From a bacterium (lineage in GTDB: Bacteria > Hydrothermota > Tepidihabitantia > B3-TA06): a stretch of 64,000 nt of DNA. Numbering within the stretch: position 1 is the stretch's first letter; each line of letters opens with the position of its first letter. A program made the position numbers and the translations under genes. Location of the stretch: assembly GCA_012517375.1 (NCBI GenBank), contig JAAYVC010000101.1, positions 19,438-83,437 of the forward strand, given 5' to 3'. The notes under the pieces are model-generated. The model worked only from the letters and a program-made list of their open reading frames with translations. It was not told the DNA's origin and did no database searches. Of the stretch, positions 795 to 63,864 are shown one piece after another.

Positions 795-2255
795 GTGCCT
801 CTGATGGGAAAAAAGAAAAACTTAAATGTCAAGAAATCCCGTTTGATTGTCGTTTCGAATCGAAGTCCTTACTTTTTTGAATCTTATAAGGATGGAATAA
901 GGATGACTCGCAGCGTAAGCGGCATGGTTACAGGTCTTGAACCCGTGCTTGCTTCCACTCGGGGGATGTGGATAGCGTGGGGCGCTCTTCCAAAAGAAGT
1001 GACTGATAGAATCTTCCGCATTCCTCCTGAAAATCCCACCTTTGACCTTAAGTTGATACAGCTGGATGCAAACGAGATAAATCGTTATTATCTGGGATTT
1101 TCCAACAGTACGCTCTGGCCCCTGGCTCATAATTTCCTGGGCAGAACAGTCTACGAGGAGCAGGATTGGCATGTTTATGAACAGGTAAACGATAAATTTG
1201 CCCAGGCTGTTGCGGAGGAGATTCGATCGAAAGATACAATCTGGGTCAATGATTATCAGCTTTCGCTGGTACCTGGAAAAATGCGCGCCCTTGGAGTCAG
1301 AGGAAAGATTGGATTTTTCTGGCACATCCCTTTTCCGCCACTTGACCTTTTCCGCACCCTTCCATGGCGCAAAGAAATAATTTCGGGTCTTCTCGGTTCG
1401 GACCTTGTAGGCTTTCACTGTCGTTCATACGCTAACAACTTTCTTCAGGCGGTAGAGGAACTCCTGGGTCTGGATGTATCTTTCTCAAAGGGGCTTATTC
1501 GAACCAGAAGACCCGTTCAGGTTGCGGCTTTTCCAATGGGAATAGATTACAAGAGGATACAATCGCTTATAAAATCCAACAATGCAATAGATACGGCGCG
1601 GAAGATACGCAAGGAACTGGCTGCCAAGCATCTTGTCCTTGGAGTTGACAGGCTCGATTATTCAAAGGGTATTCCCGAACGTCTAGCCGCAGTTGAGAGA
1701 TTTCTTGAAGAAAATCCTGCATATATCGGAAAATTAAGCTTTATCCAGGTTTCGGTTCCGAGCCGCATCCAGCTTCCTGAGTACGCTAAGATGCAATCGG
1801 AGGTCGAAAACGCCGTAGGAAGGATAAATGGACGCTTCTCGAAGAGGGGATGGGTGCCGATACACTATTACTTCAGGGCATTGCCGTTTGAAGAACTAGT
1901 AAGCTATTATATGGCTTCAGATGTGTGTTTGATAACACCTCTTCGCGACGGCATGAACCTGGTTGCCAAGGAATACATTGCTTCCCAGAACAGAAACAGG
2001 GGAATGCTTGTTCTTTCGGAGTTCGCAGGCGCTGCAGAGGAGCTCAAGGAGGCAGTGCTTGTAAATCCTTACAGCATACCATCGATAGTAAGAGGCTTGA
2101 AAAAGGCGCTGGAGATGAAACCGGGCGAACGCTACTTCAGGATGAATGAGATGCACCAGCGGCTTAAGCGCCGCGATATAGAAAAGTGGGGAAGGCTGTT
2201 TCTTGAGAAATTATCCAGACAGATAGAAACCAAGCCCGTAAAGAGAAGACCGTAA
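795..2255 (+). CDS. otsA: alpha,alpha-trehalose-phosphate synthase (GT20)
   Basis: 486 aa; GT20 motifs [34 protein letters not shown]. Confidence 0.9.
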
Positions 2256-3022
2256 TGCAATCAAACGAGGAGCTTTTCAATATATTAAGGAACGCCCGCT
2301 CCCGCCTCCTGATGTTTGATTTCGACGGAACCCTTGTCGATATCGCGCCGACTCCAGGCAGCATAAAACCGTCCCGTGATCTTGGAGATTTGCTCAACTC
2401 CTTATCCAAAAAGACCTTAACAAATGTTTGCGTGATAAGCGGACGCATTATATCCGATCTCGTTAACTACCTTCGAGATGTAAAAGGAATCGCACTGGCA
2501 GGATGCCACGGAGCCGAGATTAAAATTCCTGGAAAGAGAAAAATACTTCTCGCGGATCAAGACAAGATTCAATCACTAATAACCCAGCTCAGAGAATATT
2601 TAAAACCTTTCTTCAATGAACCAGGCATAATTATCGAGCTGAAACCATTTTCACTGGCAATGCATTTCAGGCTGGCTGAAGAACAATTAAAAACTCGCGC
2701 TAAAAAAGAATTTATCGCTCGCGCAAAGAAATTGAACGGTAATGGAGATATGGAATTTCTCGAAGGGAAGATGGTTCTTGAATTCAAACCGAAGTATGTA
2801 AACAAAGGATTAGCCGTAAAATATATCCTTAAACATTTTATTCCCGAAAAGGACTCTCTTTGCGTTTATTTCGGTGATGATACCACAGATCTTGACGCAT
2901 TTGCAGCGCTTCCAGAGCGTTCAATCAAGGTCGCGGTAGGTGAGAAGATAACGGGGAAGGCTGATTATAATATTCATTCACCTGAAGATCTTCGTAATCT
3001 AATCCGGAGGTTGGTAAAATGA
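2255..3022 (+). CDS. otsB: trehalose-6-phosphate phosphatase (HAD family)
   Basis: FDFDGTL HAD motif I, VISGR, C-terminal GDDTTD; start overlaps otsA stop (translational coupling). Confidence 0.85.
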   Translation: MQSNEELFNILRNARSRLLMFDFDGTLVDIAPTPGSIKPSRDLGDLLNSLSKKTLTNVCVISGRIISDLVNYLRDVKGIALAGCHGAEIKIPGKRKILLADQDKIQSLITQLREYLKPFFNEPGIIIELKPFSLAMHFRLAEEQLKTRAKKEFIARAKKLNGNGDMEFLEGKMVLEFKPKYVNKGLAVKYILKHFIPEKDSLCVYFGDDTTDLDAFAALPERSIKVAVGEKITGKADYNIHSPEDLRNLIRRLVK

Positions 3023-6335: not shown

Positions 6336-6407
6336 CTCCTCGGGAGGGATTTGAACCCCCGACCTAGTGGTTAACAGCCACCCGCTCTACCGCTGAGCTA
6401 CCGAGGA
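6336..6407 (-). tRNA. tRNA-Asn (GTT)
   Basis: rc gives cloverleaf TCCTCGG/TA/GCTC-AGCGGTA-GAGC/GGTGG-CTGTTAA-CCACT/T-arm GGGGG-TTCAAAT-CCCTC/CCGAGGA+G; anticodon GTT; CCA not encoded. Confidence 0.85.
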
Positions 6408-6460
6408 ATTTCCAATAAGCCTGGAGTATAGCCAGGAAAAAACTCGTGTCAAGAATTGGC

Positions 6461-9220
6461 TCATCTCAGCAATACGAACTTCGCCGTGTGTGCGTCCGTT
6501 GATGTGTGAAGAACGGCAAGGTAGAGCCCTGAAGCGGCGGGCATCCCCTTCGGAGTCAACCCGTCCCAGAAGGCGCCCATGTTATCCAGTTCTGTCTGAG
6601 TTGTGTAAACGCCTACGCCTATCTCTTTGAAGTCGTTGGGTTCGAGAGGCTCCAGTTCCTTTTCGATAACGAGCTCGCCGTTCAATGTATATATCCTTAT
6701 TTTCACGAAGGTGGACGCCTTGTTCAACCTGAATGGAAAGTAAACTCTTGCCGAGGCTGCGGCGTAGAAAGGATTAGGATAGGGAGCAAGAAATTCGTTT
6801 CGAGAAAAGGTGTCTGCCGTATCAGGCAAAGGCTCGATAGCCCTATATGCGTCGGGAATGCCGTAGCCGAGAGTGTCGTTAGGACTAGCGTACATCGTGG
6901 CGCTCCGCTCAAGAAGCGAGATTATAGTGTCGGGATTTCCTCTGTACTCGGGGTGCGCCTCGAGCATCAGGGCTGCGGTTCCGGATATCAGAGGAGCGGC
7001 ATAAGAAGTGCCGGAGTTGTAAAAATACAAGCTGAGCGAGTCGTCTATGTTTATGACGTATACTCCGCTTGCCGGCGCGACGAGTTCGGGCTTAAGACGT
7101 CCGTCAGAGGTGGGACCTACCGCGCTCCCCATACTGGAAGGGGTCTGCGGCCACCATGAACCAAGCGTATCGACGCCGCCCACAGTCAGAATGCCCTTTG
7201 CATCGGCAGGAGGAATAATATAAGGGGATGCACTTTTTACATTACCGGCCGCATTTACTACAAGAACGCCCCTTTCGGCAGCCATCGTTGCGGCCCGCGA
7301 TGCCGGTGATGTCAAGCCGTTTCTCTCGCTGTATTCATACCACTCTCCATAAGCGAGGGATGAATTTACAATATCTACGCCTTCGCGCTCGAGCCATTCA
7401 AGACCTTCTATCCAGATATCCTCCTCCGATTGAATCTCGTAGGTAAGACCGTACTTGTTGACGTGCTTTTCGGTCTTGGCTACGTAAAGCTCTGCAGCAG
7501 GCGATGCGCCTATGTATCTTGAGCCCTGGTATCCGACTGCCAGAGCAGCCGTCCTTGAGCCATGAGCGGGATGGGTATAATTATTCACGTCAATTCCATC
7601 CTCCAGAGGGTCATAGTCCGTATCACCGTCGCCTCTTTCCAGCCAAACGATCTCGAGATTGCCGCTATTCGAAAAAGCGGAAGGCAGATTGGAGAATCCG
7701 TCAGGAGAAAGGGGAGAGGGAGCATCCCAGTTCGCTTGTGAATTTCTTTTCGTCATAAATACCTGACCGGCTGATTCAAAAACAGCCTTGAGAGCGCCTT
7801 CATCATCAATGAGGTCCACGTTGTCAATAACTGCAAACGGCACCGGATGCTTGTAGGATGTCCAGGAGGTCCCGGCTCCGTCAGTTTCGTAAGAAACAAG
7901 GTTGTATTCGCCGGACGATATCTCCGCACACAAAAGGTTGTTGTTCACCATATCAAAGGCGACGACTCTACCGCTTGCAGGCGAGGAGATAGCGGTGAAA
8001 CTGGCTCCGGCATTCAGGCTTCTTGCAAGGAAAAGTCTTCCTTGAGTTAAATCAAGGGCGGATACAATAATCGTATCTCCTGAAAGAGAAGCCTTTGGCT
8101 GGTCGAGTATGCCGCCGGGCGATATTACTTGGAGGCTTAGCTGCCAGGCAAGACTGGTCCCCGTTCTCACTGCCTTGTTGAAGTACACGTTTCCGTCGTT
8201 CTTGACGTAAAAAAGAAAAGTCGTATCGTTTCTTGTGAGGATAAATGGGTTTCTTGAGTCGGTATCCAGCAGGCTCTTGCCGAAGGCTTGTCCTTCATAG
8301 TTTAGCACTGCCCACCTTAAATCCCTCGCAGTCAAGCCGTAATCTGATCCAGCCGAGCCTGCCTCCCACAATAAAACCAGCGAAGAATCCCCGGATGCCG
8401 CGTATGAACGAACAACGCCCTGCCTGTCTGAGAGTACGGCGGGGGTAAGGGGAATCGGGTCTGACCATCCCGAAGACGTGCGTCTTGATGCGAATAGTAC
8501 CCTTGCGGATTGAGAATTCTCGGGCGTCGAATCGGATATGAATAAAAGCCATTGCCCGTGAATCTCCGGCTGCTGAACTATTTCGTAGTTGTGGATGAAT
8601 GATTCATAACTTCCTTCGCTTTCACTCCAGACCACAATGTCGTCGCCCGTTATGAAATCGTGCTCGGCTCCGAGCTTCAAGGTGTTGAACACCGGATGTT
8701 TTTTGTGAAGCCCTGTATCAAGGAAACCTATTTTAACGCCGTTCCCGAATATGCCTAGGTTGTGAACGGCAGGTATATTCAGGAGCGCAAGCTGATGATA
8801 TGTAGGACCGAAGAATGCCGAGTCTATCGATTCCTTTTTCTGGATTTTTGTATCATCCGGCTGACTTATATTCAATTGGGTACAAGCAACCGGCTCCAGA
8901 GAGCGAACGAACGACATGTTCCTGAGACCGGGCAGAAGCAAGCTATCAGTTTCAACGCTTACTGCGTTAAGCCAACGCGAGCGGGTTCGAATCCTGGCGC
9001 CTGAAATCTCAAGAAGTCTTATGTACAAAGGATTGAGCGGCAGGTCCTCCTCGGCGTACTGAAAGCCAAGTGCCGACGCCGTTCTGCGCATCCCAGTTTC
9101 GGGCAGCACCCGCATGATCCCCGGTGCAGTATTCTGAATCTTATCCTTGAAATAGACCCAGTAAGGCTCCGCAGCAATGCCCAATGATACAAATAAAGCG
9201 ATAGATATAATGCTCTTCAT
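6461..9220 (-). CDS. secreted S8-family subtilisin-like serine peptidase with large internal insertion and T9SS-type C-terminal sorting domain
   Basis: signal peptide; catalytic-triad motifs GFLDTGL (Asp), HGSRTAALAVG (His), GTSYAAPLISGTAALML (Ser); C-terminal VKIRIYTLNGELV...GLYLAVLHT CTD. Confidence 0.8.
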   Translation of the reverse strand: MKSIISIALFVSLGIAAEPYWVYFKDKIQNTAPGIMRVLPETGMRRTASALGFQYAEEDLPLNPLYIRLLEISGARIRTRSRWLNAVSVETDSLLLPGLRNMSFVRSLEPVACTQLNISQPDDTKIQKKESIDSAFFGPTYHQLALLNIPAVHNLGIFGNGVKIGFLDTGLHKKHPVFNTLKLGAEHDFITGDDIVVWSESEGSYESFIHNYEIVQQPEIHGQWLLFISDSTPENSQSARVLFASRRTSSGWSDPIPLTPAVLSDRQGVVRSYAASGDSSLVLLWEAGSAGSDYGLTARDLRWAVLNYEGQAFGKSLLDTDSRNPFILTRNDTTFLFYVKNDGNVYFNKAVRTGTSLAWQLSLQVISPGGILDQPKASLSGDTIIVSALDLTQGRLFLARSLNAGASFTAISSPASGRVVAFDMVNNNLLCAEISSGEYNLVSYETDGAGTSWTSYKHPVPFAVIDNVDLIDDEGALKAVFESAGQVFMTKRNSQANWDAPSPLSPDGFSNLPSAFSNSGNLEIVWLERGDGDTDYDPLEDGIDVNNYTHPAHGSRTAALAVGYQGSRYIGASPAAELYVAKTEKHVNKYGLTYEIQSEEDIWIEGLEWLEREGVDIVNSSLAYGEWYEYSERNGLTSPASRAATMAAERGVLVVNAAGNVKSASPYIIPPADAKGILTVGGVDTLGSWWPQTPSSMGSAVGPTSDGRLKPELVAPASGVYVINIDDSLSLYFYNSGTSYAAPLISGTAALMLEAHPEYRGNPDTIISLLERSATMYASPNDTLGYGIPDAYRAIEPLPDTADTFSRNEFLAPYPNPFYAAASARVYFPFRLNKASTFVKIRIYTLNGELVIEKELEPLEPNDFKEIGVGVYTTQTELDNMGAFWDGLTPKGMPAASGLYLAVLHTSTDAHTAKFVLLR

Positions 9221-9559: not shown

Positions 9560-9633
9560 TACCCGGCATAGGAATCGAACCTATAACCTACGGATTAAGA
9601 ATCCGCCGCTCTGCCTAATTGAGCTAGCCGGGC
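9560..9633 (-). tRNA. tRNA-Lys (CTT)
   Basis: rc GCCCGGC/TA/GCTC-AATTAGGCA-GAGC/GCGGA-TTCTTAA-TCCGT/..GGTTCGATTCC../GCCGGGT+A; anticodon CTT. Confidence 0.85.
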
Positions 9634-12455: not shown

Positions 12456-12486
12456 GGCCGACCTTCAGGTCGGCCCGTTTTATTTC
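12456..12486 (+). terminator. rho-independent terminator GGCCGACC-ttca-GGTCGGCC + CGTTTTATTT
   Basis: 8-bp GC stem + T-tract immediately after stop of 11610..12449. Confidence 0.7.
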
Positions 12487-12682
12487 TAATGGTTGCTGAG
12501 ATTGTTATGGGCTATGTGTTTCTTGGTTCGCTCGTGACGCTCATCGCAAGGAAGATGGGGCGATAAATAAATCTCACGCGTCTACTTCGTACCCGCGCGG
12601 GAACCCTGAATTCTACTCCACAAGGAGCATTCCCTTCGGTAATAGATTGCCACGGTTGCACGATGCAACCTCGCAATGACAC

Positions 12683-13054
12683 TTATTTCTCTGGCTCCTT
12701 GTAAATTCGCCACTCGGCGACGAGGCCATCCGCGATTCGCGCTGTCCAGACGAAGGTCGTACTTGATTCTTCCTCAGGTGTGAGGTGCGAGCCCATTACA
12801 GAGCCGATAAGGGCAGCATCAGAGCCGGAGATGAAAACCTTGTGCACGTGAATCTTGTAATCGGGATAGAGCCTGAAATACTCCTTCCAACCTTCGAGCA
12901 TCCTCTCCCTGCCCTGAGTTCTCCCGCCTGCGTAATCGATAAAGACGTGATCGACACTCATCATATCGTCAAGTGCGGAAACGTCCTTCCGGTTTATAGC
13001 ATCCACGAATTCAAGAATCGTTTGTCTCGGATCGTGTTCTTTCTTTTTATTCAT
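12683..13054 (-). CDS. NTF2-like/SnoaL-like (ketosteroid-isomerase fold) family protein
   Basis: 123 aa; pattern ILEFVDAINRKDVSALDDMMSVDHVFIDYAGG...W typical of NTF2-like superfamily. Confidence 0.5.
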   Translation of the reverse strand: MNKKKEHDPRQTILEFVDAINRKDVSALDDMMSVDHVFIDYAGGRTQGRERMLEGWKEYFRLYPDYKIHVHKVFISGSDAALIGSVMGSHLTPEEESSTTFVWTARIADGLVAEWRIYKEPEK

Positions 13055-18171: not shown

Positions 18172-18340
18172 CATATTCATATCTGACAAATATGCTCATT
18201 CCCTCTAAGAAGGACTTGACAAGCTATAAACAATATATATACTGTCTCATAAATTACATTTTTTGAAGCAGACTGAGAAGTGGGCCGAGCGTAAAAAATA
18301 AACAAGCTTAAGATTTTAAAGACATAATAGGTGGTGTACT

Positions 18341-18784
18341 GTGAATATTACGCTCGAAAACATCCATATGATATTGAGGGAACTTATTGACGGAACGCCT
18401 GGCGTAACATTAGGAATGCTTCTGGGTGAGGAGGGACTTCCGCTATATCTTTACCCGGCATCTGAGGTGTCAGCAAACCAGATTGACAAAGCCGCGATTT
18501 CTGCTCTGAACCTTTTGAGTACTGCCGAGAAAACTTCCACATACCTTGATTTACATGGATTAAAAGGCGTGCTCGTGAGAACTGAAAACGGGTATGTATA
18601 TGGAATAAGGGTAAAAGGCATTAAAGAAAGTACCTTCGTAGCAAAGACGGACTTGAGCATCTCATTAGGCGCCTTGTTTATGGCGGTGCACGAAACATGC
18701 AATAAGCTTACAATGGCTATGGCTAATATAAGTCCTTCAACAAATTTCAACCAAAATATCATTTTTGGTAAAGCGTTAAGGTAG
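18341..18784 (+). CDS. Roadblock/LC7 (MglB-like) domain protein
   Basis: pattern GTPGVTLGMLLGEEGLPLY...GLKGVLVRTENGYVY...LGALFM typical of Roadblock/LC7; TTGACA..TATACT promoter upstream. Confidence 0.6.
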   Translation: MNITLENIHMILRELIDGTPGVTLGMLLGEEGLPLYLYPASEVSANQIDKAAISALNLLSTAEKTSTYLDLHGLKGVLVRTENGYVYGIRVKGIKESTFVAKTDLSISLGALFMAVHETCNKLTMAMANISPSTNFNQNIIFGKALR

Positions 18785-19050
18785 ATTAAAACAACAAGGA
18801 ATCGATTGTCATATATTCTTCTTGGGCAATCGAGTGTTCTTTTGAAAACTTGGAGTTGTTTACAAGCGGACTACCCTGCACGTATTGTTGCAAGCGGGTT
18901 TGAGTGAAAAGGACTCCAATGCGTAATGTAATCTGATTATTCTCAAGACTCGATATCAGACATTTTACCTATTGACTAGGTTTAATTCCGTATTATTATT
19001 ATTATCATGGTTAAGTAATCGTTGAACAGGAGAGTTTAAGATGTTTTCTG

Positions 19051-20292
19051 ATGTTTCAGAGGGTTTTACGCATGACAAGCACCATGGTTAAAACGGATGA
19101 TAAGGGTTTGAAATCGGGAGTTGCTATCTCAGAAAAGCCCTGTATCTTACTTGTAGATGATGAAGAGATTTTTGCAAAAACAATGTCCCTTTTCCTTTCG
19201 AAGCGCGGTTTTGAAGTGGAGGTCGCCTCTACCGCTCCACAAGCTCTTTCCATATTATCTTCAAAAGATTTCAACCTGCTTGTAACAGATCTAAACATGC
19301 CTGGAATGGATGGGGTGGAGCTAATCAGAAAAGTCAGGGAGATTAAACCGCATCAGAAGATTCTTGTCTTTACCGGATTTCCATCTCGTGAGTCGCAAGA
19401 AGAGGCCTATCGCCTTGGCGCAATAAACTATATCGTTAAGCCTTTTACTTCTGAACGTTTTCTTGAACTTTTGCGCAAAGCCTTAACTGTTAACAACGAA
19501 GGCCTTCTGGGTCCGGTAGAGTTAACCTTTGAGGATCTTGTCCAGGTATACGCTCAACAACAAAAATCATTGCTAATCGAGATTCAGAAGGGCGATGAGA
19601 AAGGATATATATATTTCAAGAAGGGCCGCATCGTCCATGCAGAGACAAAAAACAATATCGGCGCAGAGGCTTTCTACGAGATTCAATCGTGGAAAGCCGG
19701 CAGATTCAAAGCGGATAACTACGATTCAGAAATAAAACAAACTATAAACACAACTGTCGACGCCTTGCTTCTTGAAGGTGCAAGGATCGAGGATGAAAAA
19801 GCAAAGTCAGTCGCTAAACCCTCTCCGGCAAAAAAAACGAGAGACTTAAGTAAGGAGGATAGGGCTGACGCAAACAAGCCGCAAAGGAGGCAGTCTATGC
19901 CCTCTATGATAGAAGAAATAAACTCGGCCTTGAAGGATCTGGCTGACAACACTCCCGGCCTTAGTCTTTCGCTTCTCGTCGATAACGAAGGCCTACCCGT
20001 TGCAAGATATACCTCTATTCAGATGCAGGAAGGAGCTGCAGAAAGGGTAGCCGTAGCATCCTTAGCGTTATTGGGATTGGCCCGCCGCAATACTGACCAG
20101 CTAGGTCTTCAGGGATTTCAGGAAGTGCTTATTAAAGCTGATACAGGCTACATATACTCTGTTTCAGTCGGAGGTTCAGCAGGTTATGTTCTTGTGGCTC
20201 GAACCGATCAATCAGTAACCCTTGGCGCTTTGTTTATGACTGTTCGTACGGCTCGTGAACGAATCAACAAAGCAATGGGTATAACACTTTAA
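19051..20292 (+). CDS. response regulator: REC receiver + DUF4388 + C-terminal Roadblock/LC7 domain
   Basis: REC LLVDDEE...LLVTDLNMPGMDG...K; DUF4388-like LTFEDLVQVYAQQQKSLLIEI...GYIYFKKGRIVHAE..GAEAFYEIQSWKAGRF; C-terminal PGLSLSLLVDNEGLPV...GALFM Roadblock. Confidence 0.65.
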   Translation: MFQRVLRMTSTMVKTDDKGLKSGVAISEKPCILLVDDEEIFAKTMSLFLSKRGFEVEVASTAPQALSILSSKDFNLLVTDLNMPGMDGVELIRKVREIKPHQKILVFTGFPSRESQEEAYRLGAINYIVKPFTSERFLELLRKALTVNNEGLLGPVELTFEDLVQVYAQQQKSLLIEIQKGDEKGYIYFKKGRIVHAETKNNIGAEAFYEIQSWKAGRFKADNYDSEIKQTINTTVDALLLEGARIEDEKAKSVAKPSPAKKTRDLSKEDRADANKPQRRQSMPSMIEEINSALKDLADNTPGLSLSLLVDNEGLPVARYTSIQMQEGAAERVAVASLALLGLARRNTDQLGLQGFQEVLIKADTGYIYSVSVGGSAGYVLVARTDQSVTLGALFMTVRTARERINKAMGITL

Positions 20293-20315
20293 TCGCCTTG
20301 GAACAGGAGGCCTAA

Positions 20316-20807
20316 ATGACATCATCTCTTGATCCTTTAACAGAGTTGCTGGCCAATACATTATTCGATGGCGCCTACAGGGCTACGGGTTATATTTTAG
20401 GGCCGCAACAACTTAAAGCGTTTGTTCGCTCGTTTGCAGAAGTCGCTTTTGAACATATGCTTACAAAGACATCCAAAACAGTTCAGGGTAAAGACGCAGT
20501 GTCCGCAGCTTCAGCCTGGGCTAGTGTGGAGACCGAACTTGGATTATATAAGTCTGATCACACTGAGATTTCTGCTACTGCTGAAGGTTTTGAGGCAACA
20601 TATACTGACTGCAATTATGCCGAAGCTTGTGGTTCTGTTCTTGCAGATCTCATCTCTCAGGGCGTCATGGACAAAGAAGAGTTGCCGTGCATGCGATGCA
20701 GTCTTTCTGTTGCTGCTGTTCAGAAGGTAACTCGAGCAAAATCCAAGTATAAAATGATTCAGCACGCACCAGGTTTTCGCTGCCGCTGCAGCGTGGTTAC
20801 AATATAA
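20316..20807 (+). CDS. hypothetical Cys-containing protein (possible degenerate V4R-like)
   Basis: first gene of tightly packed operon; C-terminal CNYAEACG...CMRCS..RCRCS; weak. Confidence 0.35.
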   Translation: MTSSLDPLTELLANTLFDGAYRATGYILGPQQLKAFVRSFAEVAFEHMLTKTSKTVQGKDAVSAASAWASVETELGLYKSDHTEISATAEGFEATYTDCNYAEACGSVLADLISQGVMDKEELPCMRCSLSVAAVQKVTRAKSKYKMIQHAPGFRCRCSVVTI

Positions 20808-20824
20808 TTACCTAAGGAGAAATC

Positions 20825-21403
20825 ATGGCTCAGCCAAATGCAGCAATATTAGAATCCTATCTAAAGACTTTCATGATTGACGCAGAACACTCTCGCATCA
20901 GAATAGGAAATCATGAAGTTGCCTTTCATTGCGATAAATTCAATACCCGAATTATAAAAGGTCTTGAAGACGTTATAGGCGTGGCAGACTCCTACAAGCT
21001 TCTTGTTGCGTCCGCAGAAAAAGCCACGCTTCAGATGTTTTCTGATTTTCTGGTTTCTGAGATTAAACCCCAATTCGATGCACTCTCACCCGAAGACAAG
21101 TTTACCACACTTGTTGAGATAGGGAAACTTCTTGGTTACGGAGCGCTTAATGCATCCCGAATAAGCGATAAAGGAGGGGAGTTTTCTTCGCCATCTTCAT
21201 ATCTGGCTGAAGGATGGTTGGAAAACCAAACTCGCTGGAATTGGAAGCAGCGCACTGATCCTGTATGTTATGACATGTGCGGTTTTATAGCCGGAGTTCT
21301 CTCTATTGTTTATGGAAAACCTGCTGGAACCTATAAAGTTACTGAGATGGAATGCCGTTCAAAGGGAGACTCCGTATGCAATTTTAAGGCGGAGGTAAAG
21401 TAA
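20825..21403 (+). CDS. V4R (4-vinyl reductase/Bet3-like) domain protein
   Basis: C-terminal VCYDMCGFIAGVLSIVYGKPAGTYKVTEMECRSKGDSVCNFKAEV matches V4R Cys pattern. Confidence 0.55.
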   Translation: MAQPNAAILESYLKTFMIDAEHSRIRIGNHEVAFHCDKFNTRIIKGLEDVIGVADSYKLLVASAEKATLQMFSDFLVSEIKPQFDALSPEDKFTTLVEIGKLLGYGALNASRISDKGGEFSSPSSYLAEGWLENQTRWNWKQRTDPVCYDMCGFIAGVLSIVYGKPAGTYKVTEMECRSKGDSVCNFKAEVK

Positions 21404-21404
21404 A

Positions 21405-22016
21405 ATGCCTATTAATGCAGATCAGATTAGAGAAGCCGTTGCCGGTCTCGGGCTTGTTGGCGATAAGGAAACCGGAATCCTTCGCAGATTCGGAGTGATT
21501 CTTGCAAACAATTCGGTCGATTTTCTCGTAGGCAGAGAGATAGATTTCATCGATTTTCTTGGCCCCAAGGCTTTGAATCTTGCCGAAAAAGTTTTAATAG
21601 ATGCAGCCCAATGGTGCGCCAATGCCACTTTTGGTGGTATAATGGCCTCCCAAGAGTGGAAAGGCCTTATTGAACCCGAGATAAAGTCCGTTCATGACAG
21701 GTTTGCCGGTCTTGTTGCAATAACGAATTGTCTGGGCTGGGGCAAGATATCAGAATTCAAGGTTGACGAAGCAAACGAGAAAGTCGAATTCACCGTGGAT
21801 CATTCGTATTACGTAGACGCCTGGAAAAAGCGCTTCGGCAAATCCGATAGGCCAATATGCTATATGTGGACCGGCGTTGCAGGAGGTTATGCCGACTTGC
21901 TTTTCAAAGGCGAAGTCCACAGCCATGCAGGGACCGAAACAGAATGTGCGGCTGTAAAAGGGTCTCTCTGCAAATTCATTGGTGAACCTCATTCAAAGAA
22001 GTTCGATTTAAGATAG
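21405..22016 (+). CDS. V4R domain protein
   Basis: C-terminal ICYMWTGVAGGYADLLFKGEVHSHAGTETECAAVKGSLCKF; start 1 nt after previous stop. Confidence 0.55.
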   Translation: MPINADQIREAVAGLGLVGDKETGILRRFGVILANNSVDFLVGREIDFIDFLGPKALNLAEKVLIDAAQWCANATFGGIMASQEWKGLIEPEIKSVHDRFAGLVAITNCLGWGKISEFKVDEANEKVEFTVDHSYYVDAWKKRFGKSDRPICYMWTGVAGGYADLLFKGEVHSHAGTETECAAVKGSLCKFIGEPHSKKFDLR

Positions 22017-22017
22017 G

Positions 22018-23217
22018 GTGAACATAAAACGTCTGCGAAGTTTCTTCCCTGCGCTTTCAGACGGAAAAAAAATATACTTTGATAATGCGGCGACCTCGTT
22101 GACACCTAAACCGGTAATCGACGAGGTCGTCAGTTATTACGAGAAATTCGGGGTCAATGCGGGGAGGGGCGCCTACAGGCTTGCCTTTGAACTCAGTATG
22201 AAACTTGAAGAAGCCCGCGAAAACGTGGCTTCATTCATAAATGCCTCACCGGAAGAAATTGTCTTTACTTTTAATACCACCGATTCCATTAATAAGCTTG
22301 CCCTGTCGCTTGACTTAAAACCAGAAGACCGTGTTTTGATTACTCAAATAGAGCATCATTCGAATCTTCTCCCGTGGAAATTATTGGAAAAGAATAAAGA
22401 AGTCAAGGTTGACGTATTGCCTGTTAATGAAGAGGGGGGAATCGATATTGATCTCCTTGATAAATACTTGAAGAATAAATCGAAGATGTTTGCATTCACG
22501 GCTGCATCAAACGTACTCGGAACAATACTGAAGGCGAAAGAAATGTCTGATTTAGCTCATACCAATGGAGCACTCGTATTAATTGATGCAGCCCAAATAG
22601 TTGGTCACAGAAAATTCGATGCAAGGGAAGTAGGTTGTGATTTCGCGGCTTTCTCTGCCCACAAGATGTGTGGTCCTCCTGGCGTCGGAGTGCTTTATAT
22701 AAAAAAAGGCGCTGAAAAGCATCTCTCGCCCGCTTTTCTTGGCGGAGGAACTGTCAAGGAAATTTCTGGAAATCAATTTTTTCTAAGGGAACATCCTTAT
22801 GATTTTGAGCCAGGAACACTTAATATACCTGGCATACTCGGTTTTAATCAGGCAGTCAAGTTTGTTGAAAACATAGGCTTGGATAACATTGAAAGAAAGA
22901 TTCAAAATCTTTACCGGTTTATTATTAACGAGCTATCATCGAACAAGAATATTCTCTTGTACAACAACACTCTGGAAGAAAATGTAGGAATAGTCTCCTT
23001 TAATATTAAAGGCGTTTCGCCGCACCAGGCTGCCGTTGCATACGATAATCTTGGCAATATCATGCTTCGTTCAGGATTTCATTGTGCAATCCCTTTCGTA
23101 CAAGCCATAGGAGCTAAAGAAGGAACCATACGCGCCTCCGTAGCCTTCTACAATACCATAGAAGAAGCAGAGCGTTTTATTGAAATTACTTCCGAGGTCA
23201 TCTCCGCAATTAAATGA
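22018..23217 (+). CDS. class V aminotransferase-fold PLP enzyme, cysteine-desulfurase-like (SufS/NifS family)
   Basis: N-terminus FPAL...IYFDNAATSLTPKPV; PLP-lysine motif FSAHKMCGPPGVG; GTG start 1 nt after upstream stop. Confidence 0.7.
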   Translation: MNIKRLRSFFPALSDGKKIYFDNAATSLTPKPVIDEVVSYYEKFGVNAGRGAYRLAFELSMKLEEARENVASFINASPEEIVFTFNTTDSINKLALSLDLKPEDRVLITQIEHHSNLLPWKLLEKNKEVKVDVLPVNEEGGIDIDLLDKYLKNKSKMFAFTAASNVLGTILKAKEMSDLAHTNGALVLIDAAQIVGHRKFDAREVGCDFAAFSAHKMCGPPGVGVLYIKKGAEKHLSPAFLGGGTVKEISGNQFFLREHPYDFEPGTLNIPGILGFNQAVKFVENIGLDNIERKIQNLYRFIINELSSNKNILLYNNTLEENVGIVSFNIKGVSPHQAAVAYDNLGNIMLRSGFHCAIPFVQAIGAKEGTIRASVAFYNTIEEAERFIEITSEVISAIK

Positions 23218-23525
23218 AGAAGATCATTACAATTGAAGGTCGCCAAACTACTTACTACAGCACCAATCTTTGCAGTTACGGAGAAAAAGGTGACTATGAA
23301 CTATTTCCATCCGAAGAACAGAAATTGGACATGATAAAGCTAAAAGACAGACTCTTGCTTTTTACATCTGTAAAGGGAAGCAACCTGGCTGTTCAATTTA
23401 TCTATGCCGATACCAAAGTAACTATCTATGAGGAGGGTAGGTTACTTCTGCTGGGAGTTACACCCGATACGCATGAACAGGCATTCAAAATATTGCTGAG
23501 GATTCTAAACCTTTCTGACAAATGA
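23214..23525 (+). CDS. hypothetical small protein (103 aa), translationally coupled to desulfurase-like gene
   Basis: ATGA overlap with 22018..23217 stop; no motif recognised. Confidence 0.4.
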   Translation: MKKIITIEGRQTTYYSTNLCSYGEKGDYELFPSEEQKLDMIKLKDRLLLFTSVKGSNLAVQFIYADTKVTIYEEGRLLLLGVTPDTHEQAFKILLRILNLSDK

Positions 23526-23945
23526 AAAATCATCCATACTGCACCTTATCTTGGGTTATCAGTAATTATACCTATTGACGCTCACTTCAAATGAATCATC
23601 ATTAACGCGTTACAGGAGGAACTGCTATGAGTATAATCAAAACCCTGCCGCGCAGGAAAAGCCGTCGAAAGAGAGAGAGTCTTTGCGACTTTCTCAGTGA
23701 ACTATATGAAGACATTATTCCGGCACGAGAAGATACCCCAGCAATCAGTAGGCGCAAGCATAAAAATGTTCAAAGTAATATACCTTCGGGTCATTTCTTC
23801 CCTCCGAATTCATCCGCTAAGGCACTCACGCTTTTGATTAAGAATTCATGTATTTAATCTGAATAATACTCGTTAAAATACTTCGTTCATTTTGCATTCT
23901 GTTTAATCAATAAAATTCAGTAAGATAAAGAGAAGGGATGTGTTA

Positions 23946-23973
23946 TTGACAGTCATTATTCCACAGCTATAAT
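23946..23973 (+). promoter_or_regulatory. consensus sigma70 promoter TTGACA-16-TATAAT driving 24060..25181
   Basis: perfect -35 and -10 hexamers read directly; ~80 nt leader. Confidence 0.6.
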
Positions 23974-24059
23974 GTATATCAACTAGGTTAAAATGATTGA
24001 AGTCTATCTAAAATTCCTTGGGTACTTGAATACAATTTTATTTTTAAGAAAGGATTAGT

Positions 24060-25181
24060 ATGGACGGTAAGAAAAATATACTAATCGTAGATGATGAGAT
24101 TGATTTTGCGAAAAACCTAGAAACATTATTGTCAACAAGAGGTTTTGATTGTAAAGCGGTTTTCAGCAGCGAACAGGCTATCGAAACTACTGCAAGAAAG
24201 AAGTTTCAGCTTGTAATTGTGGATTTGAATATGCCTGAAATGGACGGCATACAATTGATCAGAAAAATAAAAGCGGTTAATCCCAAGCAGCAAATCTTGA
24301 TAATAACCGGGTTCCCTTCCCATGACTCTCAAGCTGAGGCATTCGAACTCGGGGTTCAAAATTATTTAGTTAAACCCTTTTCAACCAATGAATTTCTTGA
24401 AACAGCATCTAAGTTACTTGATTATACTGAAGATGATAAGTCAATGGTTCTTTCCGGACCTGTTGTGCTTAATTATGAAAACTTGATACAGATGTATGCA
24501 AGGGAGGGGAAAAGTATGATTCTCGAAATCAGACACAAGGGAGATATTGGTCGGATATATTTTGAAAAAGGGAAAGTATGCCATGCTGAAACCAAGAAAT
24601 TTCAAGGTGAACAAGCTTTTTTTGAAATTCAAAATTGGAACGCGGGCTTGTTTGAAACCAAGTCTTTGGACTTTTCTTTCCCGAAAACAATTAATAAAAG
24701 CTTGGAATCATTACTTCTCAAGACCGTAAAATCAGCCGATTCAGAAAAGATTATCGAACAAAAAACAAAAAAAACTCCAACTCAAAGGAGGAACCAAATG
24801 GCGAATTTGGACGAAATCCTGGCCGAATTCAGATCCGAAGTCGCTGAATTCGTATCGACAGATATCGTAGAGATAGCATCAGGCTTGTCTATCGGAGGAG
24901 GCTCGATATATCCTGATTTTGACGCAACCGTAGCTTCCGCCGCTTATGCTGATGTCGTAAAAGCAAATGAAAGGGCTATCTTTGCACTTGGCGGTAAAGA
25001 TGCTTTAGGTTCAACCGAAGACATACTGATTACTACGGAGAAAGCCTATATACTTATTGTTGTTTACCCTGGAAACAAATTCTATCACGGTCTGGCGATT
25101 ACCAGAAAAGGTAACCTTGGTATGGCAAGAGTAATAATGAAGAAGTATGTACCTAGAATCCTTGAGGTAATTCCCAAGTAG
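24060..25181 (+). CDS. response regulator paralog: REC + DUF4388 + C-terminal Roadblock-like domain
   Basis: REC ILIVDDE...VIVDLNMPEMDG; DUF4388-like LNYENLIQMYAREGKSMILEI..GRIYFEKGKVCHAE..GEQAFFEIQNWNAGLF; same architecture as 19051..20292. Confidence 0.6.
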   Translation: MDGKKNILIVDDEIDFAKNLETLLSTRGFDCKAVFSSEQAIETTARKKFQLVIVDLNMPEMDGIQLIRKIKAVNPKQQILIITGFPSHDSQAEAFELGVQNYLVKPFSTNEFLETASKLLDYTEDDKSMVLSGPVVLNYENLIQMYAREGKSMILEIRHKGDIGRIYFEKGKVCHAETKKFQGEQAFFEIQNWNAGLFETKSLDFSFPKTINKSLESLLLKTVKSADSEKIIEQKTKKTPTQRRNQMANLDEILAEFRSEVAEFVSTDIVEIASGLSIGGGSIYPDFDATVASAAYADVVKANERAIFALGGKDALGSTEDILITTEKAYILIVVYPGNKFYHGLAITRKGNLGMARVIMKKYVPRILEVIPK

Positions 25182-25245: not shown

Positions 25246-25318
25246 GGTGGGTGAGGGGATTTGAACCCCCAACAACTTGAGCCACAGTCAAGCACTCTGC
25301 CATTGAGCTACACCCACC
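25246..25318 (-). tRNA. tRNA-His (GTG) with encoded G-1
   Basis: rc G-GTGGGTG/TA/GCTC..GAGT/CTTGA-CTGTGGC-TCAAG/GGGGG-TTCAAAT-CCCCT/CACCCAC+C; anticodon GTG; extra 5' G typical of tRNA-His. Confidence 0.85.
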
Positions 25319-46030: not shown

Positions 46031-46382
46031 GGGGGCGAACGGCTTCGACGGGGTGTTGACGCACAAGAGGGCATGGCAAGGGTCTCTCGTGACCTTGTAA
46101 ATCCTGCGAGAGGAAAACTAACTGCTGATAACAGCTACGCTTACGCAGCTTAATTAACCGCGTCCTCGACCTTGTGTTCGGCCCGTTCGGTGCTAGGTTC
46201 GGGGTAATTTAGGACGGGTGAAACCTCCGGGTGGCTACTACCTGAAGGTGGATCTTTTTAGTAGCTGGTTCCTGAGTTGCTAGTCGCTAAGTTGCGAAGG
46301 AACGAGACTTTTTATAGCGACTAACCATGTAGTCCTCGACTGCCGACCATCTCGGACGCGGGTTCAATTCCCGCCGCCTCCA
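46031..46382 (+). ncRNA. ssrA: tmRNA (SsrA), ~352 nt
   Basis: 5' GGGGGCG-AACGGCTTCGACGGGG; 3' T-arm GCGGGTTCAATTCCCGC + acceptor CGCCTCC-A giving G3:U70; tag reading frame GCT GAT AAC AGC TAC GCT TAC GCA GCT TAA = ADNSYAYAA*. Confidence 0.85.
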
Positions 46383-46443
46383 TTGTAAACTAAAGAAAAA
46401 ACGGCTCTTAGGCCGTTTTTTCTTTAACCTAAATTATTCAAAG

Positions 46444-61851: not shown

Positions 61852-62372
61852 TCGAAGATCCTCCTCAAGTACTTTTCAAACTTCAAAGAGATCCTCTTTG
61901 TATTTGCTTCTATATCGTCGCCGTCACCCTGAACGTCAATCCAATGAATGTAGAGAAACTCCCCGTCGATATCTATCGACATGGTTCCCGGTGTAAGGGT
62001 AATGGAGTTTGCGAGAAACGCCTTCGCAGTATCCGTTTTGAGAGATGTACGGATCTTTACTATACCCGGCTTAACTGGGCATGAAGGGTGAAGAACCCTG
62101 AAAGCAACATCAAGATTAGCTACTATCATATGCCACGCAAAAACAGGTACGTATGCAATTGCCCAGAACCATCGTCTCGGATTCAGAAAGGAGAGAGGCT
62201 TGTGCGTGAACTCACCGCCAAAGAGCAACGCAGTGATAATTACCACAACTGCACCAGCAACCCAGACGTACCACTTATCCGGCAGGGTCAAAAGCATCCA
62301 GAGACAGTATGCTAATACAAAGAATACAATCCTCCTCATCTCAACCTCCTCCTCCAATAATCTTGGTTCCAA
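61848..62372 (-). CDS. mrpE: monovalent cation/H+ antiporter subunit E
   Basis: size/topology and position between D and F. Confidence 0.6.
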   Translation of the reverse strand: MEPRLLEEEVEMRRIVFFVLAYCLWMLLTLPDKWYVWVAGAVVVIITALLFGGEFTHKPLSFLNPRRWFWAIAYVPVFAWHMIVANLDVAFRVLHPSCPVKPGIVKIRTSLKTDTAKAFLANSITLTPGTMSIDIDGEFLYIHWIDVQGDGDDIEANTKRISLKFEKYLRRIFE

Positions 62373-63864
62373 GCTCTAAAACCGTCTCCGCGTATTTGCC
62401 TCCCGAAAGAAGCACATTGCTTGCGGGCCCGAATAGATTAGTTTTCAAAAGGAAGAAGAAGGCGCCGCCCGCTATCAAGAGAACTACAAGGGATGCCATG
62501 GCAAAAACCATTATAAAGGGCGACTCCTTGATGCCTTTAATGCCTTCTTTGCCCCAGAATACGTGATTGGTTATCTTCAAGAGATAGCCGAGCGTTACTA
62601 CCGCAAAAAGCGAAGCTATGATAGCGCCAGGTATCATGCCTGCGGCAAGAGCGCCAAGGATGATGAAAAGCTTTGAGAAGAATCCAAGGAACGGCGGCAT
62701 GCCTGCAACCGAAAGCCCGCCTGCGCTGTAGGCAAGAGAAGTCCAGGGCATCTGTTTGCCCAGACCGCCTGGAAACTTCGTGATGTCGCGTTCTCCAGTC
62801 CTGTAGACCACTGAGCCTGAGGTGAGGAACAGTACTCCCTTGCCTAGGGCATGGCTCAGTATGTGCGCAAGCGCACCTATCAGAGCAAACTCGTTACCTA
62901 TTCCGAACCCGAAGATTATGTATCCTATCTGACTAATGCTGGAATATGCCAGAAGACGCTTGTAGTCATTCTGGTTTAATGCCAAAAGACTGCCGATGAT
63001 GATGGATGCAAGTCCGAGTACAATCATGGCATCAAAAACCTGAGGATAAGAACTCCTAGTAAAACCGTAAACATTGAAGACCAGTCTGGCTATGGCATAG
63101 ACACCAAGCACCTTTATGAATACGCCCGAGAGCAAGGCGGACACAGGGGCGGGTGCCGAAGGGTGGGCGTCCGGCAACCAAGAATGGAAGGGTACTAGTG
63201 CGGCTTTGACTGAAAAACCAAAAAGAAGCAAGATGAAGACGAAATAGAATCCAACGCTCCGGTTCATTGTGGCAAGCATACGCGATATATCGGCAAGATT
63301 CAAAGTGGAGGTCGCGGCATAGATAAAAGCTATGGCGAGAAGAATCATGAGGCTCGCTATCTCGCCCATAACCATATACTTGAAACCGGCTTCAAGTTCC
63401 TCCGGTTCCGTCCCGAAAGCAACCAGAGCGTATGAGGCGATGGATGATATCTCGATGAATACGAACATATTGAAAAGGTCGCCTGTCATTGCCACGCCAT
63501 TCATCCCGACAAGCATGAGAAGAAGAAGCGTGTAGAACTTCCATGTTCCAGTGAAGTGATCCATGTACTTCAGAGCGAAAAGATAGGCGAAGAATACAAG
63601 AACCGATATGACGAGCAGCATAAGGATTCCAAGGGAGTCGACTGCAAAAACTATACCCAGAGGGATAGGCCAGCGTCCGAAGTTATAGACAAGCATGGAA
63701 CCCGGTTTGAAGGAAATAATGAGATATACAGTCAAGGCCAGAACCGCAGCCACAGACAACCCGCCGACAATCTCGGCAAGCCTTTTCCATAACTTGGAGA
63801 GAATAGGAACTAGAAATGCACCGCCAAGAGGGACAGCAATCAATAATACAAGAATCATCTCCAT
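62341..63864 (-). CDS. mrpD: monovalent cation/H+ antiporter subunit D (NuoN/NuoM-like proton-translocating subunit)
   Basis: ~14 TM; complex-I antiporter-like conserved region. Confidence 0.8.
   Translation of the reverse strand: MEMILVLLIAVPLGGAFLVPILSKLWKRLAEIVGGLSVAAVLALTVYLIISFKPGSMLVYNFGRWPIPLGIVFAVDSLGILMLLVISVLVFFAYLFALKYMDHFTGTWKFYTLLLLMLVGMNGVAMTGDLFNMFVFIEISSIASYALVAFGTEPEELEAGFKYMVMGEIASLMILLAIAFIYAATSTLNLADISRMLATMNRSVGFYFVFILLLFGFSVKAALVPFHSWLPDAHPSAPAPVSALLSGVFIKVLGVYAIARLVFNVYGFTRSSYPQVFDAMIVLGLASIIIGSLLALNQNDYKRLLAYSSISQIGYIIFGFGIGNEFALIGALAHILSHALGKGVLFLTSGSVVYRTGERDITKFPGGLGKQMPWTSLAYSAGGLSVAGMPPFLGFFSKLFIILGALAAGMIPGAIIASLFAVVTLGYLLKITNHVFWGKEGIKGIKESPFIMVFAMASLVVLLIAGGAFFFLLKTNLFGPASNVLLSGGKYAETVLELGTKIIGGGG

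Follow-up and report, generated by a model that had tools for sequence, protein, structure and literature searches.

A conserved cluster of Bet3/V4R-fold proteins and a cysteine desulfurase, linked to Roadblock regulators, in a bacterium of the WOR-3 lineage

The 64,000-nucleotide stretch of contig JAAYVC010000101.1 (assembly GCA_012517375.1) analyzed here, referred to throughout as the window, carries a gene cluster at positions 18341 to 25181 in which three small proteins of the Bet3/V4R fold, a cysteine desulfurase, and a 103-aa protein stand between two response regulators that end in Roadblock domains. The cluster is a conserved syntenic unit, beyond chance, and its five central genes, which we call the core, keep their order in very different lineages. 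The reading that we tentatively favor, and to which we attach just short of even confidence, is that the cluster represents, in the WOR-3 lineage, a signaling module that is conserved and has spread horizontally and whose core is coupled through Roadblock domains to a molecular switch.

All genes of the cluster lie on the forward strand. The core begins with A163 (20316-20807), a cysteine-rich protein of 163 aa with a predicted Bet3/TRAPPC3/V4R fold, followed by the V4R-domain proteins V4R192 (192 aa; 20825-21403) and V4R203 (203 aa; 21405-22016), the latter being the most conserved of the core. AT5 (399 aa; 22018-23217) is a type II (SufS/CsdA-group) cysteine desulfurase of a divergent subfamily, and E103 (103 aa; 23214-23525) has one invariant cysteine and a C terminus that weakly resembles a TATA-box-binding protein (TBP) repeat. 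Upstream are a stand-alone Roadblock/LC7 (MglB-like) protein of 147 aa with a GTG start (18341-18784) and the response regulator RRa (19051-20292), composed of REC (aa 32 to 141), PATAN (157 to 250), and Roadblock (about 286 to 413) domains. Downstream is RRb (24060-25181), a 373-aa response regulator with REC (aa 7 to 115), PATAN (141 to 229), and Roadblock (about 236 to 373) domains. PATAN is the domain also listed as DUF4388 or PatA_N. From RRa to E103 the genes are separated by gaps of 23, 17, 1, and 1 nucleotides and then by a 4-nucleotide ATGA overlap between AT5 and E103, and because of this tight spacing the RRa gene probably belongs to the core operon. A preliminary description of this DNA had spoken of seven genes in one neighborhood and of a tightly overlapping operon at 20316-23525. 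The functional neighborhood stands, but the genes described are eight forward-strand open reading frames (ORFs); likewise the operon is tight (gaps of 17, 1, and 1 nucleotides) but overlaps only at the AT5/E103 junction. The domain calls of that description were backed by Pfam, with the gaps filled by profile-profile comparison and predicted fold.

A scan of 185,579 species genomes with the V4R203 alignment returned 23 loci, all in metagenome-assembled genomes (MAGs), from WOR-3, Ca. Zymogenus, Anaerolineae/Ardenticatenia/Ornatilinea, Zixibacteria, Caldisericota, Solibacteraceae, Myxococcota, Cytophagia, Hyd24-12/Fermentibacteria, KSB1, and others. When the gene families were mapped by jackhmmer onto these and further metagenome loci, 25 non-redundant loci besides the window were obtained, each of them a MAG or metagenome contig, and together they cover more than ten phyla, including Chloroflexota, Acidobacteriota, and Bacteroidota. 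Conservation of the neighborhood, which the preliminary description had named as a check on its proposal, was found in all 25 as the same gene order, and the series A163-V4R192-V4R203-AT5-E103 is complete and fixed in 19 of the 19 loci not cut by a contig end. We treat the core as one unit because of this synteny and the tight spacing of its genes. The closest genome is a WOR-3 MAG (CBFGKC01; locus L011) with the same flanking synteny. In the window and in this relative the cluster occupies the same chromosomal position among housekeeping genes.

Roadblock-type genes accompany the core in 20 of the 25 loci. Nine loci (Caldisericota, Solibacteraceae) have a Roadblock gene inserted between V4R203 and AT5, and in nine the gene directly upstream of A163 codes for a protein with a C-terminal Roadblock domain, which is the arrangement of RRa in the window. 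Locus L007 (6259-12762) contains a tandem, diverged duplication of the Roadblock-A163-V4R-V4R quartet and a single AT5-E103 pair, which suggests that the quartet is a structural unit and the desulfurase pair a catalytic one; a second V4R192-V4R203 pair is also present at the start of the L027 contig (1-2401). It is this frequency, the insertion within the operon, the upstream Roadblock genes, and the duplication of the quartet in L007 that lead us to couple the core to Roadblock proteins. PATAN proteins are found in 8 of the 25 loci, and the fusions among REC, PATAN, and Roadblock domains vary from locus to locus (REC-PATAN-Roadblock, PATAN-Roadblock, REC-PATAN, and REC-Roadblock-like). All-against-all clustering of the locus ORFs revealed no other recurrent neighbor besides Roadblock, PATAN, REC, and GTPase genes and catalase (four loci), with the exception that three Caldisericota-type loci have a weakly PATAN-like protein next to their GTPase.

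The Roadblock domains of the window were assigned with differing ease. The stand-alone protein is borderline in Pfam (Robl_LC7, E 4.2e-5, 23.6 bits against a gathering threshold [GA] of 23), and hhalign comparison with the other cluster-linked Roadblock families gave a probability of 99.8%, which bears out the earlier call of a free Roadblock protein at 18341. It shares 36% identity with the Roadblock domain of RRa, and the WOR-3 MAG encodes an orthologue, 74% identical, at the corresponding place. All three domains of RRa were found by Pfam (Response_reg, 1.9e-26; DUF4388/PatA_N, 5.9e-18; Robl_LC7, 7.9e-10 over aa 295 to 374). In RRb, Pfam detected only Response_reg (4e-26) and DUF4388 (6.5e-13) and missed the Roadblock domain, which was recovered at aa 236 to 373 by profile-profile comparison (hhalign probability, 97-98.8%). 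RRa and RRb share 42% identity over REC and PATAN, and both possess the phospho-acceptor set (acidic pocket DD, D, T, and K), the acceptor D of RRa lying in TDLNMPG. The pair of paralogous REC-DUF4388-Roadblock regulators that had been proposed is thus upheld, including the Roadblock C terminus of the second, and the window holds three Roadblock domains in total. The start of RRa is ambiguous, the longest ORF running from 19051 (413 aa, no Shine-Dalgarno sequence) and a shorter one from 19072 (406 aa); on metagenome contigs of the same organism the protein has 406 aa in L001 to L005 and 413 aa in L006.

Relatives of these domains tie both regulators to the core. Between the window and the WOR-3 MAG, the Roadblock domain of RRa is 93% identical and the whole protein 72%. 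This domain has its nearest relatives in two settings, namely Roadblock genes that lie upstream of A163 (three loci, of which two are Chloroflexota MAGs and one is a metagenome contig of unknown taxon) and Roadblock genes within the Caldisericota operons. The Roadblock domain of RRb shares 54% identity (E 2e-49) with a stand-alone Roadblock protein from a Cytophagia MAG, the gene of which lies directly upstream of A163. Because orthologues of both domains sit in or directly before the core operon elsewhere, it is plausible, as far as sequence relationships can indicate, that the core feeds both regulators.

Roadblock proteins raise the question of a GTPase, and the preliminary description had called the cluster GTPase-less. 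For the window this is correct, as tblastn with MglA, a P-loop scan, and Pfam analysis of the flanking genes found no small GTPase in the 64 kb, and none was found within 10 kb to the right of the window. The WOR-3 relative likewise has none over 9 kb upstream of its cluster; on the downstream side its contig ends after 1.1 kb. As a trait of the module, however, the label does not hold, since a small GTPase (MglA or Arf/Rab-like) lies beside the same core in 8 of the 25 homologous loci. Bona fide MglA (E 2e-57 to Thermus/Myxococcus MglA; PDB 3t12) occurs in Chloroflexota, a Solibacteraceae MAG, and one unclassified MAG. An Arf/Rab-like GTPase, with Arl8 and Rab3 as best PDB matches, occurs in Caldisericota and Zixibacteria loci (L016, 12763-13913, reverse strand; L017, 13569-14114; also L018 and L019). 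In the three Caldisericota-type loci this gene is divergent from the core and is followed by a protein of about 200 aa with a weak PATAN match (E 0.0026). Among the adequately flanked loci, about half are without a GTPase over 8 to 10 kb.

We link the core to a switch because of the GTPase genes and the PATAN proteins, each in 8 of the 25 loci, and because of the varied REC/PATAN/Roadblock fusions. Since homologous loci carry MglA or an Arf/Rab-like GTPase, the cluster, judged from its sequences, belongs to the MglA/MglB/PATAN family of systems. The window is a GTPase-less, phosphorylation-wired variant of a module linked to MglA and Roadblock proteins, not an isolated oddity. By its own criterion the preliminary description would have been refuted had the neighborhood already been annotated as a known pathway such as an Mgl polarity locus with a GTPase. 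The kinship with the Mgl family comes close to this, but no description of the V4R/desulfurase part was found in the literature searched.

Three V4R (Bet3-like) proteins had been proposed, and we recovered two of them by sequence and the third by fold only. V4R192 matches Pfam V4R above the threshold (4.8e-10, 39.8 bits; GA 31), whereas V4R203 falls below it (5.6e-6, 26.8 bits). The V4R203 family profile matches the sensor domain of MopR (5kbe, 1.8e-7) with the C-E-C-C motif aligned, and hhalign places it with the V4R192 family at 98.6%. A163 has no match in Pfam or NCBIfam, a PDB profile search was negative, and hhalign to V4R families gave a probability of 4%; its best structural matches are TRAPPC3, TRAPPC5, Trs31, and Bet3, and by this predicted fold, with no detectable sequence similarity, it is a member of the Bet3/V4R group. 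V4R203 retains 49-89% identity across phyla, and V4R192 has just 37 homologue clusters among 5.8 billion. The V4R proteins match no enzyme family in Pfam or NCBIfam, and we know of no established function for stand-alone V4R proteins.

The cysteines of the trio are strongly conserved. C148, C177, and C185 of V4R192 and C152, C181, and C189 of V4R203 are invariant (28 of 28 sequences each), H35-C36 of V4R192 is kept in 25-26 of 28, and A163 has four invariant cysteines (25 of 25). The two invariant trios align with the C-E-C-C motif of MopR and PoxR, which we take to be the zinc site of their structures. The four cysteines of A163 agree with the Cys4 zinc site described for Thor-TRAPPC3 in a study of Asgard TRAPPC3, a site that resembles that of PoxR and has been lost from mouse TRAPPC3 (PMC10933270). 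Both the alpha-beta fold of the Bet3/V4R group and its cysteine-based zinc site were therefore found in the module. An iron-sulfur (Fe-S) reading of these residues was set aside, since they align with a known structural zinc site. The earlier suggestion that conserved cysteines next to a desulfurase imply a sulfur- or metal-dependent sensing step is accordingly weak: cysteines that match the MopR/PoxR/Thor-TRAPPC3 site are by themselves no pointer to Fe-S or sulfur chemistry. Of the invariant cysteines, the zinc site leaves just C20 of E103 unexplained; C36 of V4R192 and C71 of V4R203 are nearly conserved.

The TRAPP core consists of Bet3/TRAPPC3, Trs31/C5, and Trs33/C6 with longin subunits and acts as guanine nucleotide exchange factor (GEF) toward Rab1, and Ragulator is built of Roadblock dimers that work with Rag GTPases. 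An alternative to our reading is that the module is a GTPase regulator of this kind, in which the Bet3-fold trio and Roadblock dimers form an exchange or GTPase-activating platform for a small GTPase, which in this organism would be encoded outside the cluster elsewhere in its genome, REC phosphorylation acts as a gate, and the desulfurase has an accessory or maturation role. The structural matches of A163 agree with it, and so do the presence of three Bet3-fold proteins together with three Roadblock domains in the window and of a GTPase in cis in 8 of 25 loci; in L009 and L010, MglA is flanked by a PATAN-Roadblock fusion, an MglB-like Roadblock protein, and a Roadblock-like protein of 174 aa. 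In TRAPP the platform is a longin dimer very similar to MglB, and the Bet3 C terminus provides GEF activity (PMC3747258); the V4R203 family also has a conserved tail, KKFGL, after its last strand (F200 and L202 invariant; 21990-22016 in the window). Likening this tail to the Bet3 C terminus, with its exchange activity in TRAPP, is an analogy only. The TRAPP subunits of the Bet3 family have been proposed as likely descendants of V4R (PMC2253512), a paper in which a term search for operon, neighborhood, GTPase, and Roadblock found none of them. However, about half of the well-flanked loci lack a GTPase within the distances given above, and some lack Roadblock genes as well. The link of the core to two unrelated GTPase types runs counter to a specific pair of GEF and substrate, the bacterial V4R domains of known function (MopR, PoxR, and DmpR) are small-molecule sensors, and the constant, apparently active desulfurase is left unexplained along with E103. 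We consider this account unlikely.

The desulfurase itself is well defined. AT5 matches Aminotran_5 at 1.9e-116, and its best PDB matches are SufS/CsdB enzymes (E 1e-87 to 1e-71; 5b7s at 1.6e-87, also 5j8q and 1i29), in agreement with the SufS/NifS-like, pyridoxal phosphate (PLP)-dependent enzyme first described. It carries the type II motif RSG(F/H)HCA, with C356 in RSGFHCA. The PLP lysine K216, the catalytic C356, and H114, D190, Q193, and R372 are kept in all 22-23 full-length orthologues with one exception, a protein with Ser at the His114 column, and because of this conservation AT5 is likely an active enzyme. Its similarity to SufS and its housekeeping flanks would also suit an ordinary desulfurase for Fe-S cluster assembly surrounded by chance neighbors. 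Against this, AT5 scores 378 bits with TIGR01979 (sufS), below the cutoff of 475, and Pfam and NCBIfam searches found no sufBCD, sufE, sufU, or csd partner genes in the window. The AT5 gene moreover overlaps that of E103, a protein restricted to the module, and chance does not keep five genes in order across more than ten phyla. We rejected this explanation on synteny and the family cutoff and regard it as highly improbable.

E103 is the least familiar of the core proteins. It has invariant positions at L19, C20 (22 of 22 sequences), D27, and G75, and neither Pfam nor NCBIfam matched it, nor did Pfam match any of 19 family members. The family has 21 representatives among 1.84 billion proteins, all of them stand-alone proteins of 101-127 aa without domain fusions. 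Its profile weakly but consistently matches one TBP repeat over residues 36 to 100 (best E 0.0024); an AlphaFold2 model built on a 2-sequence alignment was unusable (pLDDT 42). A desulfurase beside a possible DNA-binding protein of TBP type could indicate a DNA modification or defense system like Dnd or Ssp, and AT5 does match PADLOC SspA and DndA at about 190 bits, while the distribution of the module is patchy and has the appearance of horizontal transfer. Yet AT5 scores twice as high against SufS, DndBCDE and SspBCD are absent, and the other PADLOC matches are weak and confined to the REC domains of RRa and RRb. The module also has no nucleases, ATPases, or mobile-element genes, and the cluster stays at one chromosomal position among housekeeping genes in the window and the WOR-3 relative. 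A system of this type was rejected as having scarcely any probability.

Four loci (L008, L012, L032, and L035) consist of the core with no Roadblock, REC, or GTPase gene nearby, and therefore the core has a function of its own. In L012 it adjoins a class II aldolase gene, and in L035 it lies within purine-biosynthesis genes. In L008 (Fermentibacter; 6404-9111) it is divergently adjacent to genes for Fur, catalase, and a peroxiredoxin (AhpC-TSA); catalase is at the same position in L031 (1750-3252) and L032 (5834-8652), and in the Cytophagia locus L028 (1172-2539) it is about 7 kb away. Such neighbors could be a sign that the core is connected with oxidative stress or iron. They also suit a second alternative, namely that the core is an autonomous module for sulfur mobilization, cofactor maturation, or redox stress, whose V4R proteins carry, or provide a scaffold for, a compound that is hydrophobic or contains sulfur and to which switch genes became attached in some lineages. 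The intact desulfurase active site fits such a role, and V4R relatives include ligand carriers and sensors as well as the related ATC hydrolase, which cleaves a C-S bond (PMC5847659). On the other hand, Roadblock genes lie within the operon in nine loci, and Roadblock and the three V4R-fold genes duplicate as a unit. The core has no transporter, Fe-S scaffold, or second enzyme, and the V4R proteins resemble no enzyme family. We therefore think it improbable that the core acts only in this way.

Returning to the reading that we favor, a signaling module coupled through Roadblock proteins to a switch, we start from the observed folds and domains, the synteny, the intact catalytic residues, and the linkage of Roadblock, GTPase, and PATAN genes, and infer from these the physical interactions, a sulfur relay, a signal, and an output target. 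A163, V4R192, and V4R203, which are paralogous or analogous and have zinc-type sites of three or four cysteines, would most likely form a hetero-oligomeric platform for binding either a partner protein or a small molecule. AT5 and E103 would most likely be a persulfide donor and acceptor, as are SufS-SufE and CsdA-CsdE, and might load or modify the platform or its ligand. Roadblock-domain proteins would be the cognate partners of the platform and wire the core to the switch. In Chloroflexota, Acidobacteriota, Caldisericota, Zixibacteria, and others the switch would be a small GTPase (MglA or Arf/Rab-like), often with a PATAN protein; in the organism of the window, Roadblock is fused to PATAN and REC in place of a nearby GTPase. 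Here the Roadblock domains of RRa, RRb, and the free 147-aa protein may read the state of the V4R/desulfurase core and combine it with phosphorylation from an unlinked histidine kinase, and the output may be passed on through the PATAN domains. A precedent for PATAN output is its binding to the type IV pilus motor PilB1/PilC in Synechocystis (bioRxiv 10.1101/2021.06.11.447907).

Several observations weigh against this reading. The core-only loci indicate that coupling to Roadblock is not obligatory, and all homologues come from uncultured organisms. The zinc site explains the cysteines of the V4R-fold proteins, so that the only obvious sulfur acceptors left are C20 of E103 and the nearly conserved C36 and C71. 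E103 has no similarity to SufE, SufU, CsdE, or TusA in Pfam, NCBIfam, or profile searches. AT5 and E103 diverge far faster than the V4R proteins, which is unexpected for a tightly co-adapted complex: between the window and the WOR-3 relative, V4R203 is 89% identical and A163 and V4R192 are 77% identical, but AT5 only 57% and E103 48%, the flanking housekeeping genes (Fpg, GyrI-like, ExoIII, and ZIP) being 77-89% identical. The genome may harbor a GTPase gene at some other place, and Pfam analysis of the flanking genes found no histidine kinase and no type IV pilus genes in the window.

Among known systems, the MglA/MglB polarity switch of Myxococcus and Thermus (Wuichet & Sogaard-Andersen 2014; Makarova et al. 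2006) is closest in that Roadblock and PATAN are co-encoded in both and that homologous loci hold true MglA and MglB-like Roadblock genes. It differs in that the window lacks a GTPase and has Roadblock and PATAN fused to REC, that the V4R-fold trio, the desulfurase, and E103 lie outside any described Mgl system, and that some loci use an Arf/Rab-like GTPase. With TRAPP and Ragulator the module shares Bet3-fold paralogues, platform domains of Roadblock/longin type, and, in related loci, a GTPase of the Ras superfamily. This likeness to TRAPP is at the level of fold only; the platform is Roadblock in the module but longin in TRAPP, no Rab is present in the window, the desulfurase and the TBP-like protein have no TRAPP counterpart, and the bacterial proteins keep the cysteine zinc site. 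V4R192 and, below the gathering threshold, V4R203 match Pfam V4R, to which the sensors MopR, PoxR, and DmpR and the stand-alone V4R protein MJ1460 belong, and align with the MopR motif. Unlike those sensors, however, they belong to a fixed trio of stand-alone proteins instead of forming the N termini of sigma-54 activators, no aromatic-catabolism genes lie near the module, and A163 has lost recognizable sequence similarity.

The desulfurase pair resembles SufS-SufE, SufS-SufU, and CsdA-CsdE in that a type II desulfurase with all its catalytic residues is coupled translationally to a small neighboring protein with one invariant cysteine, but E103 is unrelated in sequence to SufE, SufU, CsdE, and TusA, SufBCD is missing, and AT5 stays below the SufS cutoff. 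The actinobacterial conservon (CvnA kinase, CvnB Roadblock, CvnC, and CvnD GTPase) is likewise a cassette of two-component, Roadblock, and, in loci related to ours, MglA-family GTPase parts alongside uncharacterized proteins (PMC4316618), but the window has no CvnA-type kinase, CvnC (DUF742), or CvnD GTPase, composition and phyla differ, and the receiver is fused to Roadblock. Cyanobacterial PatA regulators also join REC and PATAN in one protein, with PATAN as the probable output domain; their order is PATAN-REC, whereas the module has REC-PATAN with an added Roadblock domain and no chemotaxis-like operon. In archaea, REC is fused to V4R-like and Roadblock-like output domains (PMC5847659).

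The neighborhood link between PATAN and MglA/MglB has been published before (PMC4316618) and is not new here. The five-gene core is undescribed in the literature that we searched, which did not extend to subscription-only papers and which contained no operon of V4R with a cysteine desulfurase or with MglA and no Bet3/Roadblock neighborhood. The initial statement that no characterized system has this composition agrees with that result.

The intergenic regions of the cluster contain three promoter-like sequences on the forward strand. TTGACA-16-TATACT (18216-18243) precedes the 147-aa Roadblock gene and matches 11 of 12 consensus positions; TTGACT-16-TATTAT (18972-18999), with 10 of 12, precedes RRa within a 266-nucleotide intergenic region of GC content 0.35; and a perfect sigma-70-type promoter, TTGACA-16-TATAAT (23946-23973), precedes RRb within a 202-nucleotide stretch of GC content 0.27. 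The last is the perfect promoter named in the preliminary description, with 12 of 12 matches, and the AT-rich leaders noted there are likewise real, at GC 0.35 and 0.27-0.36 against 0.46 for the whole window. The call at 18216-18243 is a consensus match only, and the total number of such sites in the region does not exceed the expectation from shuffled sequence. Rfam found no RNA element in the leaders, its only matches in the window being three tRNAs and one tmRNA. One tRNA gene (25246-25317, reverse strand) lies 65 nucleotides past the RRb stop codon and marks the right edge of the cluster; the other two (6336-6407 and 9560-9633, both reverse) and the tmRNA gene (46031-46385, forward) lie outside it.

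Between E103 and RRb is an ORF of 76 aa (23627-23857, forward strand) with an AGGAGG Shine-Dalgarno sequence and a basic N terminus. It has a syntenic homologue in the WOR-3 relative (L011, 12223-12468; 45% identity, E 2e-17) in DNA that is otherwise not alignable between the two, has no Pfam or NCBIfam match, and was found in no locus other than these, so we regard it as a probable lineage-specific small protein. The core-only locus L035 has an additional ORF of 76 aa (12458-12688) between its desulfurase gene and its E103 orthologue. Several metagenome runs hold contigs about 99.4-99.95% identical to the window, and SRR15661554 and SRR27241287 are examples of samples from which this organism was assembled, and an identical V4R192 has been deposited as a hypothetical protein (locus tag GX441_11045). 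By Pfam, the rest of the window consists of housekeeping genes. Elsewhere it contains trehalose synthesis genes (otsA/otsB-like, 795-3022), two radical SAM genes, and a ComEC gene, and an Mbh/Mrp-type membrane-bound hydrogenase and antiporter cluster begins at 62341-63864 (reverse strand) and runs past its right end (L036). The hydrogenase cluster fits an anaerobic, fermentative lifestyle.

To our knowledge, Bet3-fold proteins, Roadblock proteins, and Ras-like GTPases have so far been known together only from eukaryotic GTPase regulators. The module provides a genomic tie of V4R to Roadblock and, in a third of the loci, to MglA or Arf/Rab-like GTPases, and an operonic tie of this kind in bacteria would surprise specialists in GTPase evolution. 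The module makes it possible to test, with a few small, soluble proteins, whether the cooperation of Bet3-fold proteins with Roadblock platforms and GTPases extends beyond eukaryotes. The boldest interpretation, which we put forward as speculative and rather doubtful, is a bacterial machine in the style of TRAPP and Ragulator, in which a Bet3-fold trio on Roadblock dimers controls MglA or an Arf/Rab-like GTPase, a sulfur relay serves as input, and the WOR-3 lineage has rewired the system so that receiver phosphorylation replaces or supplements the GTPase. If this were true, the partnership of Bet3, Roadblock/longin, and GTPase would predate eukaryotes and exist outside Asgard archaea. The pairing of a signaling cassette with a dedicated desulfurase and a tiny, cysteine-bearing, TBP-like family may mean that polarity-type switches receive a sulfur-based input, and the variant in the window illustrates how the control of such a switch can pass from GTP to phosphorylation.

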